A stretch of DNA of 64,000 nt, taken from a phage. This document shows positions 9,579 through 47,711 of this stretch, one piece after another; the first letter of the stretch is position 1; every line of letters begins with the position of its first letter. A program made the translations under genes and the position numbers. The notes beneath the pieces were generated by a model that searched no databases, was not told the origin of the DNA, and worked only from the letters and a program-made list of their open reading frames with translations. The stretch lies in sequence record OZ346219.1; one strand, 5' to 3'.

Positions 9579-10604
9579 CTAACTTTTTGCGCTATTTACC
9601 TCGGCTAAAAGTTCATCAGAAATACGCTTGACCGCCGCAAGTTCTTCCGGTTCTAGGTTTTGTTCTTCCAGATATTCATAGACCATCTGAATAGTGCTTT
9701 TAACTTCAATAACACCTGTTTCCTGTGATGCGCTACTCTCCAGCTTATGGACCACTTTTAGCTTGTGTACAACGGCCTCTAAAGCGCTTTCTAACTTAGT
9801 TAACCCATTATCAGCGACCGTTGCGATAAGACGCACACTAAGCCCCTTAAAGCGTTCTACATCGATTTTATCATCTGACGGGTAAGTGATACGCACATGA
9901 TAAGTTTTGTCATTCTGGATAAACTCCTTTTTGTGTGTATCGGTATCGAATACCCAAAAACCACGCGGATCGTTTTCGTCACCAGCCGTTAGTGTGTATG
10001 GTGTACCAATATACGTTACGTTACCGCCATCACTGATAGTATGAAAGTGACCAGAAAACACTTCACGGTATTTCTTGAGGAAGTCCGCGCTATAACCTTC
10101 TGATTTTAGACCTTTATAGAAATAGTAACCGGACAATTCCCAATGGCCTACACAATATTCGCTGAATGAGTTTTGAATAAACTCTAAAATCTCTGATTTA
10201 TTGTCATCACAAAACCACGGGAACAGATCAAATGATACACCATCAAAGGTGACTGTTTCCGGTTTATCGATAACCTTAATGCAATCATACTGGCTTAACA
10301 CTTCACGCGGTGCGTTAGGCTGGATCTTGTTTCGTTTAAACATATCATGGTTCCCGACCGTGATATAACAAGTAATTCCAGCCTCTTCCAGTAATGGGAT
10401 GACCTTAGTACGGTTAAATTTCATGGTTTCATGGGTAATTGCTTTTCGGCAATCAAACCAATCCCCTGTTTGAATCCATGTCTTAATATTATGCTCTTTG
10501 GAGTATTCAACCGCCTTCTTGATGGTATCAAGAATATACTCATGCACCCACGGATCATCGCCACCGATACCAGTATGCAGATCACCTAAAAGCAAAATTT
10601 TCAT
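9579..10604 (-). CDS. 47: Recombination nuclease (gp47-like, Mre11/SbcD family)
   Basis: 341 aa; calcineurin-like phosphoesterase motifs LLLGDLH and VGNHD; size and position as T4 gp47; GAGGAAGAG SD. Confidence 0.9.
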   Translation of the reverse strand: MKILLLGDLHTGIGGDDPWVHEYILDTIKKAVEYSKEHNIKTWIQTGDWFDCRKAITHETMKFNRTKVIPLLEEAGITCYITVGNHDMFKRNKIQPNAPREVLSQYDCIKVIDKPETVTFDGVSFDLFPWFCDDNKSEILEFIQNSFSEYCVGHWELSGYYFYKGLKSEGYSADFLKKYREVFSGHFHTISDGGNVTYIGTPYTLTAGDENDPRGFWVFDTDTHKKEFIQNDKTYHVRITYPSDDKIDVERFKGLSVRLIATVADNGLTKLESALEAVVHKLKVVHKLESSASQETGVIEVKSTIQMVYEYLEEQNLEPEELAAVKRISDELLAEVNSAKS

Positions 10605-10694
10605 AGTCTCTTCCTCTCTTCGTTTTCGATGCTCTCACTATATCACAGAAAAATAAAAAGGGAAACCCCTTTCAGAGTCTCCCCTATAAAGCCA

Positions 10695-10982
10695 TTACAG
10701 CATACTTAATACCGTTTGCCGTGTACTAATCCACATAGCAGAAAGCAGTTCTGGCGTGTGTGGCTGTTTGTAGATATCACGTAACTTTCCGATAGCGTAG
10801 ATATACGCATCACGGTTATCATCGATGATAGCTTGTTCAGCCCACCGCTTAAGGCGTGCAATCTCTCGCGAGTTCTTACGCAAGATCTTTTCCGCTTTCT
10901 TAGCGGCTTTAGCCTCTAGTTCTGCTTGTACTTTGTCTACTTCATTCACTGCAATCTGGTCATGCTGTTCATCGTAAGTCAT
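10695..10982 (-). CDS. Hypothetical protein
   Basis: 95-aa ORF with AAGGA SD; occupies the 47-55 interval where T4 has a-gt. Confidence 0.4.
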   Translation of the reverse strand: MTYDEQHDQIAVNEVDKVQAELEAKAAKKAEKILRKNSREIARLKRWAEQAIIDDNRDAYIYAIGKLRDIYKQPHTPELLSAMWISTRQTVLSML

Positions 10983-20596: not shown

Positions 20597-20627
20597 AATA
20601 TAATCCTCTCGTTGTTTAGATGGGAGT

Positions 20628-20656
20628 ATCTTACTACTCCCGTTTCATCATGTCAA
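20628..20656 (-). promoter_or_regulatory. Sigma70-like early promoter with stem-loop over -10
   Basis: TTGACA-N17-TAAGAT; GGGAGTA/TACTCCC inverted repeat spans the -10. Confidence 0.5.
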
Positions 20657-21219
20657 GCGTTAAATGACTTTTGGATCTCTTTCAGTTCAGCTACTTTATC
20701 GGCGCTGAATTTAGCGTAGGTATCATGTCGAATAATTTCACTTTCAAGAAAGGTTTCCAGCCGAGATCTATTTTCAATAAGGAACTCTTTCAGGTCTTCC
20801 GCGTTCTTGATAAAGATTTTATTGTCGGTAATGTCATCTTCAATCGCAAAGGAGATAGAGCGAACTTTACCAAACAAGTTAATCAGATCTTCCAGAGATT
20901 CTTCTTTCTTAACTGGTTTCATTTCTTCAAACTGCTTTTTAGTGATGCGTTTAAAGTATTTGCGCTCGCTTGCATCAATCATGATTGACGCACCCTCATA
21001 ATCATGAGTTTCTACCAAATACACTTTACCCATAACATTAACCGTAAGAACTTTAAAGCCCCTGTGAAGCACACCATACAGGAACTTGTTATGTTGTGGG
21101 TAGCGTTTAACAAATTCCTCTGCGGACTCAGCATTACGGAAAGTGTAATAACGACCTCGTTCAAAAACAGCATCAGTTGAAGACTTAACCGGATACAATT
21201 TATACGTTTTCTGTACCAT
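20653..21219 (-). CDS. WEVGKTY-family paralogue (divergent)
   Basis: ATG 21219 with GAGGATTATATT leader; same three-part architecture as 15751-16278. Confidence 0.45.
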   Translation of the reverse strand: MVQKTYKLYPVKSSTDAVFERGRYYTFRNAESAEEFVKRYPQHNKFLYGVLHRGFKVLTVNVMGKVYLVETHDYEGASIMIDASERKYFKRITKKQFEEMKPVKKEESLEDLINLFGKVRSISFAIEDDITDNKIFIKNAEDLKEFLIENRSRLETFLESEIIRHDTYAKFSADKVAELKEIQKSFNA

Positions 21220-24419: not shown

Positions 24420-24728
24420 TTATTTCACGTTAACGCCGTTATCAATCCAGCCGACGCTATTTGGTTTAACAGTTTTACCATAGGATGCATACTTAATCAA
24501 GCATGGTTTAACATCATTATCAAATCTTCCTAAACGTACTCCCAAATCAGGAATATCCATGTATGCGGCTTTATATCCCCATGTGCCATATTCAGAATCA
24601 ATCTCAACCGGACGGCCTTTAAAAGCATACACTACACCGTGACGGTCAACGATAACATAGCAATAACCAGCCGGAAGATACACAGTTTAGCCGTAAACTT
24701 TAACTGGAGTAGCAGAAGAGATAAACAT
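24420..24728 (-). pseudogene. Small gene interrupted by an in-frame TAA at codon 14
   Basis: ATG 24728 with GAGGATTATATT leader; reads MFISSATPVKVYG-TAA-TVYLPAGYCYVIVDRHG... in one frame; track ORF 24420-24683 starts at GTG 3 nt after the TAA. Confidence 0.4.
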
Positions 24729-24798
24729 AATATAATCCTCACATCGTTCATTTGATGCGGTCATTATATGATAACCGCATTTTCATGTCAACAGTTTT

Positions 24799-25738: not shown

Positions 25739-26042
25739 CAAGTTTTCCTCTCAGTACAATTCGTGAAATCTTCCCTTCATGATTTCGTTGGTTCTTGTCT
25801 TCACAGTTTACCCATTCAACAAGGTCTTTACCTAACTCGAAAGCCCATTCTCGGTCCTGCTTTACGTTTTGTAGGTATGGACTTTCTGACACTCTACGAA
25901 GTGATGTTGTCGTAACAAGAATGATCTCAGGAATGGTCGGATGTTCTTTTCCATATACAATAGGACGCGAGTCACTATCAATACCTTGTAAGAAGGTGTA
26001 TCCTGAATCACTTAGAATCATATACTTTTTCATTTCACACAT
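25704..26042 (-). CDS. Hypothetical protein
   Basis: ATG 26042 with GAGGAA SD; overlaps upstream stop by 1 nt. Confidence 0.4.
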   Translation of the reverse strand: MCEMKKYMILSDSGYTFLQGIDSDSRPIVYGKEHPTIPEIILVTTTSLRRVSESPYLQNVKQDREWAFELGKDLVEWVNCEDKNQRNHEGKISRIVLRGKLDEIKNRILQSM

Positions 26043-26299
26043 CACAGTTTCCTCAACCAGTTATTAAAGCTAGCAAACCATGATGCTTTTCGTGCTTCTT
26101 TTACTTTATGTGCACGTAAACCACTGAAACACCATTCATAATCATCACTGAAACATGATTCAACAGGAACACCCGCATTTCGTAGTTCTCTGGTCTTTAT
26201 CATGAATCCTTGACATAATGGGCGACCTTCAACAATGATAGGAAGTTTAACTTTTTCCATGAAAGTATACCCAGCACGGTCAATAATTTCAATCTTCAT
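26042..26299 (-). CDS. MKIEIID-family small protein
   Basis: MKIEIIDRAGYTFMEKVKLPIIVEGR; GAGGATTATATT leader; paralogue of 26318-26515 and 28632-28853. Confidence 0.45.
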   Translation of the reverse strand: MKIEIIDRAGYTFMEKVKLPIIVEGRPLCQGFMIKTRELRNAGVPVESCFSDDYEWCFSGLRAHKVKEARKASWFASFNNWLRKL

Positions 26300-26317: not shown

Positions 26318-26515
26318 TTATACCGCCCAGGCTTCATTTGCACGAAAACACCATTCATATTCAGGAAAATAACCTTTAATTGGTACGCCAGCTTTTTGTA
26401 GTTCCTGCGTTTCTACAAGATAATCAAGCCCATAACGACGACCTTCCACGATGATAGGAAGTTTAACGCCATTCATGAAAGAAAATCCACCGTCATCAAT
26501 AATTTCAATTTTCAT
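26318..26515 (-). CDS. MKIEIID-family small protein
   Basis: MKIEIIDDGGFSFMNGVKLPIIVEGR; GGAG SD. Confidence 0.45.
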   Translation of the reverse strand: MKIEIIDDGGFSFMNGVKLPIIVEGRRYGLDYLVETQELQKAGVPIKGYFPEYEWCFRANEAWAV

Positions 26516-35262: not shown

Positions 35263-35709
35263 CTAACCACGGGTATAGTGTTCCAGAACAACGGTCAGAT
35301 GAATATATTCTAATAAATCTTTCCAAAAGTCAACATCTGGTTCTTCCGGCATACCGTTTTTCTTTGCCTCTTCACGAGCGAGTTTAACCCGCTCGTAGAG
35401 ATCTTTCAATTCTTCCCGCACATTATCAAAGGTTCTTTCTCCTAACTTACACGCTAAAATAGAAGAACGTCGCGCGAGCGGGAATTGTAGATCACCTGTC
35501 TGATAGATTTCAAGTAGCTGATAACCAACACGCAGAGCATGAGAAAGATCTTTCCAGTTACTGAAATACTTTTCAGATTTGGCTACCTGCTTTTTGAGAT
35601 AGCCAGACAAACCCCACATACCAACATGATAGAATTTATCTCGATGTGTTCGGATGTATTCCCATTCTCTGGAGGATTCAATCAACATGTTACTAGGAGC
35701 GTGCACCAT
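35263..35709 (-). CDS. Hypothetical protein
   Basis: 148-aa track ORF; no SD at either candidate ATG; 5' end overlapped by HNH gene. Confidence 0.35.
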   Translation of the reverse strand: MVHAPSNMLIESSREWEYIRTHRDKFYHVGMWGLSGYLKKQVAKSEKYFSNWKDLSHALRVGYQLLEIYQTGDLQFPLARRSSILACKLGERTFDNVREELKDLYERVKLAREEAKKNGMPEEPDVDFWKDLLEYIHLTVVLEHYTRG

Positions 35710-36140
35710 GTCAATTTAGCCATGTGATGCATTTCACCCCAACATTTATTAAGACCTGTCTCTTTAGCATGAATGAGATTTTCAGATTTGCTAGTCCATT
35801 CCAAATTATACAGGTCAAAATTTCTTTTGTTTCCATCCTTATGATTCACTTCCGGCAAATTATAAGGATTCGGTATAAACGCAACAGCAAGAACTCTATG
35901 CATATTTAAAGTTTGCTTTATTCCTAACGGTCGGTTACGAACAGTAAACTTTGCATAGTTGTTAGTCTCAGGAATCCATATAGAAATAAGATTACCGCTT
36001 TTCTTATTCCTGATTTTACCATAAGAACTAACTTCAAACAAGTCTATCGGGTGAAAATAATCAATAACTTTCCACTCTTCATCATGGTCATCACAATATC
36101 GTTTCACATCATACCCTCTTCTATAAAAACTTAAAAACAT
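35682..36140 (-). CDS. HNH homing endonuclease
   Basis: VNHKDGNKRNFDLYNLEWTSKSEN HNH core; ATG 36140 without SD, directly after terminator 36151-36183. Confidence 0.75.
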   Translation of the reverse strand: MFLSFYRRGYDVKRYCDDHDEEWKVIDYFHPIDLFEVSSYGKIRNKKSGNLISIWIPETNNYAKFTVRNRPLGIKQTLNMHRVLAVAFIPNPYNLPEVNHKDGNKRNFDLYNLEWTSKSENLIHAKETGLNKCWGEMHHMAKLTWCTLLVTC

Positions 36141-36150
36141 AATATCAGAT

Positions 36151-36183
36151 TTTATAGAAAAGGGCAACCCCTAAAGGTTGCCA
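36151..36183 (-). terminator. Terminator after the peptidase gene
   Basis: Minus strand GGCAACCTTTAGGGGTTGCC then CTTTTCT. Confidence 0.5.
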
Positions 36184-44657: not shown

Positions 44658-44690
44658 TAAAAAAGCCCGTCAATGACGGGCTTAATTTTT
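44657..44690. terminator. Bidirectional rho-independent terminator
   Basis: AAAAAAGCCCGTCAATGACGGGCTTAATTTTT; serves plus gene 44403-44657 and minus gene 44689-45741. Confidence 0.65.
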
Positions 44691-45741
44691 AATATGTATC
44701 AGCTAATTTAATTATGTTATCAAGTTCCGTGATTGGTAAAGTTTCTGTGTATCCATCTTTCAACATGGATTTATCAACAACGCCACAATGATAAGTTCTC
44801 TTTATTTCCTTTTCAAGTTCCCACGGAATCCAGCCATCAACACTTTGTTTGACGTAAACAAGTTTGTGAACAAACTTAGATTTCTGCATATGTTGTTTCA
44901 TTCTGGTTTCCGGTAATTCATTGGTTACACCAAACTTTATAAATTTATCATCTAACGTCTGGATATAAAAATATCCCATCTCAGATGGACGATAGCCAGA
45001 AGAACTACATTTCGGACACCCTTTAGCATTTCTGTTGAACGTACAATATCTTACGGAAAATTCTGCATCATGTTTTGTACATTTAAGTTTTATCCATGAA
45101 TTTGCAGTACCTATCCATTCACCATCGACACCTATATATTCATACCCTAACTTTTTACATTTATCTTCTATTCTAGATAGTGCATCTTCCACGGGAACGA
45201 CATATTCCATCTTAAATTGTTCAGCCGCGCATTTCTTACAACCACATGTACCATGATTTTTAAAATCAAAGAACTTTGTATTCTTCCAAATATGGTCATG
45301 TTTCTTGCATCTAAGAATCATCTTAGTAATTTGTGATTTCCACCCACCAACAAATCCCAAAAATTCATAATCAAGATCTTTACATTTTTCTTCAATGAAT
45401 TTGGTTGCTTCCTCTTCTGTCATAACTCCCCTACATTGAGGGCAACCAACAATAACCTTTTTAGCATAGAAACTATTACTGGAAACATCATAGACAGATC
45501 CATGCTTATTGCATTGGATAACAGATCTAGTCAATTTTCCTTTCCATTCTCCAGAAAATCCTAAAAATGTATGGTCGACAAGTTTACACCTCTCAATAAC
45601 TTTGTCCGCAAATTCTCTAGGAGATTTTGTTACTTTGTTTACTCTGTATTCTATTTCTTCCGGTTGACGAAGATCATAAACGTGGGGATTGCTCCCCACG
45701 GAATTAATATTAAGCATCCTTCCACACCTTCCTTGCATCAT
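44689..45741 (-). CDS. GIY-YIG/T5orf172-like nuclease-domain protein with three tandem Cys-rich repeats
   Basis: ATG 45741 (AAAGG SD; track start 45819 overlaps upstream gene); three ~60-aa repeats F.EKC..L.YEFLGF.GEWKG...C.KH...GCP.C then C-terminal GYFYIQTLDDKFIKFGVTNELPETR; sits between the gene 3 and gene 2 candidates. Confidence 0.5.
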   Translation of the reverse strand: MMQGRCGRMLNINSVGSNPHVYDLRQPEEIEYRVNKVTKSPREFADKVIERCKLVDHTFLGFSGEWKGKLTRSVIQCNKHGSVYDVSSNSFYAKKVIVGCPQCRGVMTEEEATKFIEEKCKDLDYEFLGFVGGWKSQITKMILRCKKHDHIWKNTKFFDFKNHGTCGCKKCAAEQFKMEYVVPVEDALSRIEDKCKKLGYEYIGVDGEWIGTANSWIKLKCTKHDAEFSVRYCTFNRNAKGCPKCSSSGYRPSEMGYFYIQTLDDKFIKFGVTNELPETRMKQHMQKSKFVHKLVYVKQSVDGWIPWELEKEIKRTYHCGVVDKSMLKDGYTETLPITELDNIIKLADTY

Positions 45742-46531
45742 AGTTTTTACCTTTAGAAACAAATTTATATGTGTTAAGGTAGATAATATTGCTCCAGTCT
45801 TTCGGGCTAATCTCAACAAGTTTTGTTTTAATGTGTCCAGGTAGATATGCTTTGATCATGTGATCACTTCCACGCATACCTTTTACATCGCTCCATTTGA
45901 TTTTTAAGCGTGTTTTATTGCTCAAGGTAGGAGTAGATGCATATTGCTTTAAAAGTGCCTCTAAAAACTGCTGACGGGCTTTAGGCGTTACATAGTGTAA
46001 GTTAAGACCCAGCATTACAGTATTACCCGCCTTTGTCTTAGAATCACCCAGACAAATGATCAGCGGGAAAACATCCCAATATGGCAAAGTGTCTTTATAC
46101 TTCGCATCATACATAAAGGTATAGATTCGCCCTACTTGCGGTTTTACAATCTGGTGTCCCTTTATTCCCGCTTTTATTGTTTTAGTAAACCACTCCTGTG
46201 ATTTTTCTTTAGGACGACTCTTTGATACAGCACGCATAGACGCACGAAAATCATTAATCATCATCATTGCGCGTTGCTGCTTATTGAGACCCTTTGCTCC
46301 TTTCCCTTTTAGTTTTTCAACTTCTATTGCTGTTTTAATTTCGCTGGCATAACGAGACATACTTTTAGTGAAAGTCGCATAGGCTATTCCCTTAGAATCT
46401 GCAAATGCTTTAGCTGTCATACCTTTGGCTTTTGCTTTCGCAAATTCTACACCCAATTCGACCCACTGTTTAGACTTTCGTTTTTGGGGAGACGGCTTTT
46501 CGTCTTCTGTGATTATTTCAAATACGCTCAT
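45710..46531 (-). CDS. Putative DNA end-protector (gp2-like by synteny and size)
   Basis: 273 aa (T4 gp2 is 274 aa), strongly basic; GAGGATAATATT leader; position between gene 4 and gene 3 candidates. Confidence 0.5.
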   Translation of the reverse strand: MSVFEIITEDEKPSPQKRKSKQWVELGVEFAKAKAKGMTAKAFADSKGIAYATFTKSMSRYASEIKTAIEVEKLKGKGAKGLNKQQRAMMMINDFRASMRAVSKSRPKEKSQEWFTKTIKAGIKGHQIVKPQVGRIYTFMYDAKYKDTLPYWDVFPLIICLGDSKTKAGNTVMLGLNLHYVTPKARQQFLEALLKQYASTPTLSNKTRLKIKWSDVKGMRGSDHMIKAYLPGHIKTKLVEISPKDWSNIIYLNTYKFVSKGKNYDARKVWKDA

Positions 46532-46542
46532 AATATTATCCT

Positions 46543-47016
46543 CTATTTGTTAAGACCTTTAAAGCCAAACACTTTCTTTAATGCATGTTCGGTGATGATC
46601 TTAAACTCCATGTTATGCTTTTGGCATAATTTCACGGCAGCTAACCATTTTTCAGTATTTTTTGTGTATGTCCATACTTCATGCATATATCGTTGCTTTG
46701 TCTTCGCGGTCATTCTTTTTGGCTTTTCCGGTGGCCTTGTCTCTTTAGCTGGTTTAACTTCCCATAAATGCTCCTTGCCATCATCAAACTTAACGTAAAA
46801 ATCCATAAAGTATCTGTGTCTTTTCCCGTCTGTTGATGACTCATAAGGAATTACTACGGTCTCAGATCCCCATTTTGCAACTCTAGGATTGCGGTCTAAA
46901 AATTTCATTATATGTAATTCCCAACTTGACCTGTAGACGATTTTTTTCAGGTCGCCTTTATACTTCTCCGGGTTTTCAGGTCTATATTTACCCTTATATG
47001 TGTTGCAATTACCCAT
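46543..47016 (-). CDS. Putative head completion protein (gp4-like by synteny); PD-(D/E)xK-like motif
   Basis: 157 aa (T4 gp4 ~150 aa); AAGGTGG SD; FMDFYVKF...HLWEVKP resembles a D...E.K nuclease motif. Confidence 0.45.
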   Translation of the reverse strand: MGNCNTYKGKYRPENPEKYKGDLKKIVYRSSWELHIMKFLDRNPRVAKWGSETVVIPYESSTDGKRHRYFMDFYVKFDDGKEHLWEVKPAKETRPPEKPKRMTAKTKQRYMHEVWTYTKNTEKWLAAVKLCQKHNMEFKIITEHALKKVFGFKGLNK

Positions 47017-47711
47017 TATACCACCTTCTTCTTGCAGTTGTCACCATGCCATCTAACATAATTTCCCTGATTGGCTGTTTTTCCACAATGAGGACAGGTG
47101 AAATACGGACGAGACTTTGACAATTCACTATATTTTTGTTTCATTTCTGGCGTGTTATGAATACGTTTCCATTTCTCTACGTTTTCTTGTGACAACTTTC
47201 TACCCTTACCCGCTTTAGAGATGTTGTCTCTCCATTCTTGTGTAATTTCTCTTGACGCAATATTTCTTTTATGTTCTTCTGTAAACACTCTACCTTTTAA
47301 TGAAGCAGATAATTTCTGTCGATGTTCCTCAGATAATTTAATTCCTTTTCTCTTTCCTTTAGTTGCTTCTGATATTCTGCGTCTAGTCTCTTCGGATCTT
47401 TTTCTTCCTGTATGAAATTTTCTTGAAGTCTCGACCGCAAGTTTTCTTACCCACTCAAATTGTTTATTGTTATAGTTGGTAGACCCCATCAATATTTTCG
47501 CCGCATGTACAATTCCGTGATGTGTTGGATGCATTTTTGCTAAAAGTTGATGAGCAACAAAATGTTCAGACCCCGTTAACTCAACTATATTTTCTGGACT
47601 ATCATCACCTCCCATACAACGAGGAATAATATGATGTTTTTCTTTATATCCTTCAAGCGTTCTATGCTTTGCGCGTTCAATTAATCGATCATAATGTTTT
47701 TGATAGTCCAT
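47016..47711 (-). CDS. HNH homing endonuclease (Mob-like) with basic repeat region and zinc finger
   Basis: 231 aa; HHIIPRCMGGDDSPENIVELTGSEHFVAH HNH core; repeated basic G[KR]..SEEH[KR] motifs; C-terminal CPHCG; divergent from gene 53 and shares its leader through a 14-bp inverted repeat. Confidence 0.75.
   Translation of the reverse strand: MDYQKHYDRLIERAKHRTLEGYKEKHHIIPRCMGGDDSPENIVELTGSEHFVAHQLLAKMHPTHHGIVHAAKILMGSTNYNNKQFEWVRKLAVETSRKFHTGRKRSEETRRRISEATKGKRKGIKLSEEHRQKLSASLKGRVFTEEHKRNIASREITQEWRDNISKAGKGRKLSQENVEKWKRIHNTPEMKQKYSELSKSRPYFTCPHCGKTANQGNYVRWHGDNCKKKVV

Follow-up and report, generated by a model that had tools for sequence, protein, structure and literature searches.

What becomes of a small phage gene that has a strong promoter and a good ribosome-binding site, and meets an in-frame stop codon after only 13 sense codons? 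Such a locus lies at 24420..24728 on the minus strand of the window, by which we mean the whole 64-kb stretch of phage DNA that was analysed (64,000 nt of record OZ346219.1). The original prediction left three options: a pseudogene created by a nonsense mutation, termination followed by reinitiation at a GTG just downstream, and stop-codon readthrough. To these we add an erroneous base in the record. Our comparison with related phages favours the first option, one base away from a GAA codon, at a probability of roughly 0.7: a genuine ochre mutation, private to this strain, that inactivates an accessory early gene wholly or nearly so. Readthrough as a designed mechanism did not hold up, and a restart at the GTG, though its geometry is possible, found no support.

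Layout of the locus

All features described here are on the minus strand. The locus matches RB49p068, a gene of phage RB49, collinearly and over the full length (102 codons plus stop), with a single internal stop. Its native ATG (24728-24726) does have the standard leader attributed to it, GAGGATTATATT, with the Shine-Dalgarno (SD) motif GAGG at 24737..24740, 8 nt 5' of the ATG. The predicted duplex of this motif with the anti-SD has an energy of -6.0 kcal/mol, typical of the real starts in the window. Farther upstream lies a sigma-70-type early promoter (24763..24791), in which TTGACA (24791-24786) and TATAAT (24768-24763), separated by a 17-nt spacer, match the consensus at 12 of 12 positions. 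Both hexamers are invariant across six aligned genomes, and the record of phage GEC-3S annotates a promoter at the same site.

From the native ATG, 13 sense codons can still be read (MFISSATPVKVYG; 24690..24728). Codon 14 is the ochre stop TAA at 24687..24689, exactly where it had been reported. It is followed by an ACT codon (24686-24684) and by the in-frame GTG (24681..24683), which lies 3 nt past the TAA and is the Val16 codon of the intact gene. The last 86 codons, together with the native TAA at 24422-24420, are in frame and intact (24420..24680), so that the list of open reading frames (ORFs) contains the 87-codon frame noticed earlier, an 87-aa ORF from GTG 24683 to the native terminator. 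A frameshift at the stop in either direction (+1/-1) was considered and rejected, the +1 frame being a 39-aa ORF (24751-24632) that ends 18 codons on and does not return to the protein frame.

Two further observations concern the leader. A 7-bp inverted repeat noticed by eye, ATGCGGT (24780-24774) and ACCGCAT (24761-24755), flanks the -10 hexamer; a hairpin would be expected only in transcripts arriving from upstream, and a few of the stem positions differ in divergent genomes. In the records of pEJ01, FL04, W115 and AV108 the orthologue is annotated as a protein of 114 aa starting at an ATG 36 nt upstream (24687-24764 region). This longer form is probably an annotation artefact, because its ATG overlaps the -10 hexamer (TATAATG) and has no SD.

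Identity of the interrupted gene

The window belongs to a Krischvirus, an RB49-like T-even-type coliphage. Fifty-nine phage records matched a 421-nt query around the gene at 95-99.3% identity, and the best match of a 25-kb stretch was phage kaaroe (98.6%). The interrupted gene is the orthologue of RB49p068, which encodes a hypothetical protein of 102 aa; it matches phrog_16340 over residues 1-102 of 102 (E = 1.9e-70), and a Pfam search matched no family. The reading of the two sides of the stop as one protein was borne out, since both parts align end to end with RB49p068: stop aside, 99 of the 102 residues are identical (97.1%), and 100 of 102 are identical to the best records.

Synteny is kept as well, with the gene sitting between the orthologues of p069 and p067 within a block of small early ORFs without known function, upstream of dam. 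In the records of RB49, TB34, phiS, SSG23 and Makalu_002 it is annotated as one 309-nt coding sequence (CDS), not as the two separate genes that would have spoken against an interrupted frame. RB49p068, a small early accessory gene, occurs in Krischvirus and in the one more distant relative that was located. Nearby, the orthologues of RB49p073 and p074 (26042-26299 and 26318-26515, minus strand; 85 and 65 aa) are adjacent paralogues with 53% identity, a tandem duplication in the early region.

The stop codon is private to this record

Whether a sense codon is conserved at position 14 was answered by the relatives. In the alignment with RB49, TB34, phiS, SSG23 and Makalu_002 the codon is GAA (Glu) throughout, and the window differs by G to T at position 24689, where the coding strand has T in place of the G of all relatives. 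We extended this comparison to phage records with a 74-nt query that begins at the start codon and extends past the stop, searched both as it stands and with the T replaced by G. The replacement raised the match of all 59 records by exactly one position and left their listing order unchanged: identity rose from 98.6 to 100% in 9 records, from 97.3 to 98.6% in 18, from 95.9 to 97.3% in 25, from 94.6 to 95.9% in 6 and from 93.2 to 94.6% in 1. Thus, all 59 carry G. Among the records of the phage collection there was no exact match to the 74-nt stretch.

Metagenomic and genomic collections gave the same picture. An exact-pattern scan for the TAA allele returned 0 hits in IMG/VR, the JGI metagenomes and the GTDB genomes, and a control pattern with N at the variable base matched 5 contigs, all with G. 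We also looked up the p064 orthologue, the most distinctive neighbouring protein in the window (86% identical to that of RB49), which returned 23 contigs; the 9 fetched loci with this allele that cover the p068 position all have GAA and encode the intact protein. Altogether, GAA was present in 19 of 19 orthologous loci read directly, these 9 included. At the protein level, the listed members of a 90%-identity cluster with 103 members are 102 aa long, or 114 aa where the upstream ATG is used, and a collection of about 15 billion proteins does not contain the 87-aa product starting at the GTG.

Apart from the nonsense change, the gene carries no private change. We had considered Asn97 (AAC in place of GAC), the only other difference from most relatives in the 3' part, as a second private change hinting at decay; it proved to be common to FL38 and three metagenomic contigs. 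Across the region, 64 private substitutions were counted in 9,575 aligned positions (0.67%; window versus four relatives), so that about 2 per 309 nt are expected anyway. As Asn97 is a standing polymorphism and as private changes are expected at this rate, the argument from relaxed constraint was dropped.

Mutation or consensus error

The family is well conserved. Across 14 distinct orthologue sequences, the mean pairwise pS was 0.108 and pN 0.017 (ratio 0.16), and this substitution pattern marks RB49p068 as a true coding gene that is subject to purifying selection in the genus. We found no sign of long-standing pseudogenisation in the window copy, which fits a recent mutation and a base-call error alike. 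The main rival to a private mutation is accordingly a sequencing, assembly or consensus-calling error, in which case the phage itself would have GAA and the T at 24689 would be an artefact or a promoted minority variant. Such an error would account for a single substitution seen in no other sequence, for its position in a gene whose copies elsewhere are all intact and selectively constrained, and for the lack of a second private change in the gene that would suggest long-standing decay.

The quality of the record argues against it. We translated 126 CDSs of RB49 and compared them with the window, in which 110 have full-length matches. An internal stop was found in 1 of these 110 genes, RB49p068, and the other 109 contain neither internal stop nor frameshift. 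Thus, the record is not error-ridden and its genetic code is standard. Furthermore, consensus-level substitution errors are rare in modern assemblies, and genuine private substitutions occur in the region at a rate that would by itself place about two in a gene of this length. We therefore regard an error as unlikely, and the private mutation as the better account of the T at 24689. Sporadic gene disruptions or assembly errors do occur elsewhere among the public sequences of the genus: in two metagenomic Krischvirus contigs, L015 (3435-4247) and L019 (2313-3069), the dam methyltransferase is called as two ORFs (46 + 221 aa and 98 + 100 aa, respectively).

Readthrough of the stop codon

A frame that is open and conserved on both sides of a stop is also what readthrough would leave, with a suppressor or near-cognate tRNA decoding UAA, in a programmed or host-dependent manner, to give the full-length protein; an ochre-suppressing propagation host is conceivable. 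Known cases in phages are the A1 read-through protein of Q-beta and the phages that encode suppressor tRNAs and have recoded TAG or TGA. The window resembles them in having an in-frame stop with conserved coding sequence on either side. It differs in that its stop is absent from every orthologue, is UAA rather than UGA or UAG, and affects 1 of 110 genes, and in that the window has neither a suppressor tRNA nor a stimulatory structure. Of the stop codons, UAA is the least leaky, and both release factors recognise it.

In the window, TAA genuinely terminates 62 of the 110 genes, and in 14 of these an A follows, as it does here (TAA-A). Internal stops are missing from all the other genes, so that the code is not reassigned. 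A stretch of 111 nt, taken around the stop and downstream of it, showed no readthrough-stimulating RNA structure, being no more structured than shuffled sequences (z = 0.14); moreover, no element can have evolved to serve this stop, because it is absent from all relatives. The earlier report of no suppressor tRNA in the window was upheld by ARAGORN, which found 0 tRNA genes in the 64 kb, and the whole genome of RB49 encodes no tRNA (PMC1524935, Table 1). Programmed readthrough is effectively excluded, and readthrough of any kind, host-dependent suppression included, appears extremely improbable beside a plain loss of the protein by nonsense mutation.

Fold of the protein and its distant relatives

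The consequences of a start at Val16 depend on what the first 15 residues contribute. An exhaustive HMMER search found 13 distant relatives of RB49p068, some of them single-domain proteins of 86-97 aa and others large proteins with 2-7 copies of the module. In an alignment of six sequences that includes such homologues, residues from about 7 onwards are similar; Val9 never changes, whereas position 14 may be E, V, M, Q or I. An AlphaFold model from the single sequence was unusable (mean pLDDT 37.6). A model from this six-sequence alignment (mean pLDDT 67, pTM 0.61, residues 11-40 at about 80) was used for strand positions only. It is all-beta, with beta1 at residues 7-11 and beta2 at 14-18, and a product starting at residue 16 would therefore, on this model, lack beta1 and part of beta2.

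A Foldseek search against the PDB found no similar solved structure (best E = 3.5), and a fold search of BFVD found similarity (TM about 0.5) only to uncharacterized small proteins of T4-like and other phages. The N-terminal module of RB49p068, about 50 residues long, occurs in 2-7 tandem copies in large proteins (P0017, P0019, P0021 and P0022), some of which end in a dCMP/cytidine deaminase domain or in the N-terminal domain of a dATP/dGTP diphosphohydrolase. This repeat module is uncharacterized and is associated with enzymes of nucleotide metabolism.

Reinitiation at the GTG

The gene might stay active if ribosomes that terminate at codon 14 restarted at GTG 24683 and produced a functional protein of 87 aa, beginning (f)Met-YLPAGYCYVIVDR. 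No other in-frame restart candidate lies nearby. Classical precedents that speak for such a rescue are the restarts after early nonsense codons in lacI and T4 rIIB. The window shares with them a near-N-terminal stop and an in-frame GUG within a few nucleotides. It departs from them in that no SD-like sequence precedes the GUG, that the arrangement is an accident of one mutation and is not conserved, and that the putative restart product would be without the conserved strand.

The same geometry fits the scanning model of Adhin and van Duin 1990, as presented in section 19 of PMC5972666. According to that section, which also cites Yamamoto et al. 2016, a ribosome that has terminated scans more than 40 nt in either direction, and its restart takes place at the first start codon that has an SD-like sequence before it. 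The GTG, 3 nt past the TAA, is within scanning distance. However, it lacks the SD-like sequence that this section calls for. As the original prediction held, it has no SD of its own: its anti-SD duplex energy of -1.7 kcal/mol is weaker than that of 99% of 98 orthologue-supported starts (median -6.4) and on a par with random positions (median -1.9). Within range, an SD backs only one start, the native ATG 39 nt upstream.

Two features of the gene add to this. The GTG is merely the Val16 codon of the intact gene and is GTA in phiS. A product started there would lose residues 1-15, including the conserved N-terminal strand, and any restart would be inefficient and its product probably defective. 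We consider a restart that keeps the gene functional to be improbable. A weaker form, in which SD-independent reinitiation at codon 16 yields enough of the 87-residue protein for partial function, would be a natural case in which a restart rescues an early ochre mutation of a wild T-even-type phage; we think it very doubtful. Under the private ochre mutation that we prefer, occasional restarts at GTG 24683 would be unselected, inefficient leakage of a product without its first beta-strand, not a designed mechanism.

Other differences between the window and RB49

The comparison with RB49 brought up several further differences. An ORF of 161 aa with NUMOD4 and HNH_3 domains (35682-36167, minus strand), probably a homing endonuclease, occupies the site of RB49 vs.6, p100, vs.8 and the 5' end of nrdC.11. 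Of the nrdC.11 nucleotidyltransferase, only residues 81-232 are left, in a 148-aa ORF (35263-35709, minus strand) that is 98.7% identical to RB49; a Pfam search of this remnant gave no hit. nrdC.11 is the second truncated gene in the window, and the cause is an insertion or replacement, not a point mutation. Between the orthologues of gp4 and gp53, an ORF of 231 aa that is absent from RB49 (47016-47711, minus strand) has a NUMOD3 motif according to Pfam and, by eye, an HNH-like motif (HHIIPRCMGG...); it is probably another homing endonuclease.

Between the orthologues of p130 and gp2 the window carries about 1 kb of DNA more than RB49 (44689-45819, minus strand), with an ORF of 376 aa that contains two CapR homology domains (E = 1.1e-14). 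The TTG at which it is listed to start overlaps the 3' end of gene 2, so that the true start probably lies further in. Conversely, no orthologues were found in the window of RB49p058 (frd.2, 392 aa; corresponding to about 20600-21200) and RB49p040 (an HNH/AP2 endonuclease; 10604-10698), presence/absence differences of the kind typical of T-even plastic regions.

Discussion

The evidence points to the following course of events. A single G-to-T transversion would have turned GAA (Glu14) into TAA. Ribosomes would still start normally at ATG 24728, served by the strong promoter and SD, stop at codon 14 and release a peptide of 13 residues. With termination there, the full-length protein of 102 aa would not be made at meaningful levels, and the allele would therefore be null or a severe hypomorph. 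The existence of the phage suggests that plaque formation on the isolation host, at least, does not require the gene, and a plaque-purification bottleneck would easily fix such a mutation. As for the genes downstream, the 267 nt left untranslated contain 41 C and 67 G; because this stretch is G-rich and not C-rich, a good rut site, from which Rho-dependent polarity could spread, is not predicted. The next gene downstream has its own GAGG SD.

Events of this kind are ordinary and already known. The collections of amber and ochre mutants in T4 rII are the classical nonsense mutants of T-even phage genes. Like the ochre mutants among them, the window shows a one-base change that makes an early UAA, a wild-type codon that is recoverable from relatives, and an otherwise intact gene. 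Unlike them, it is the genome record of a natural isolate, not a laboratory-selected mutant, and the change lies in an accessory gene. Compared with its own family (phrog_16340), small all-beta proteins of Krischvirus, the window gene has the same position, promoter and SD; its copy is broken at codon 14, whereas all other members are intact.

We recommend annotating the locus as a disrupted orthologue of RB49p068, not as a new 87-aa gene with a GTG start or as a recoding site, and position 24689 offers a single, easily checked base for quality control of the assembly. The finding itself carries little biological weight, as mutation and plaque-purification bottlenecks routinely leave a private premature stop in a non-core accessory gene. 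If the allele is true, however, the isolate would be a ready-made natural knockout for probing this conserved early protein of Krischvirus.
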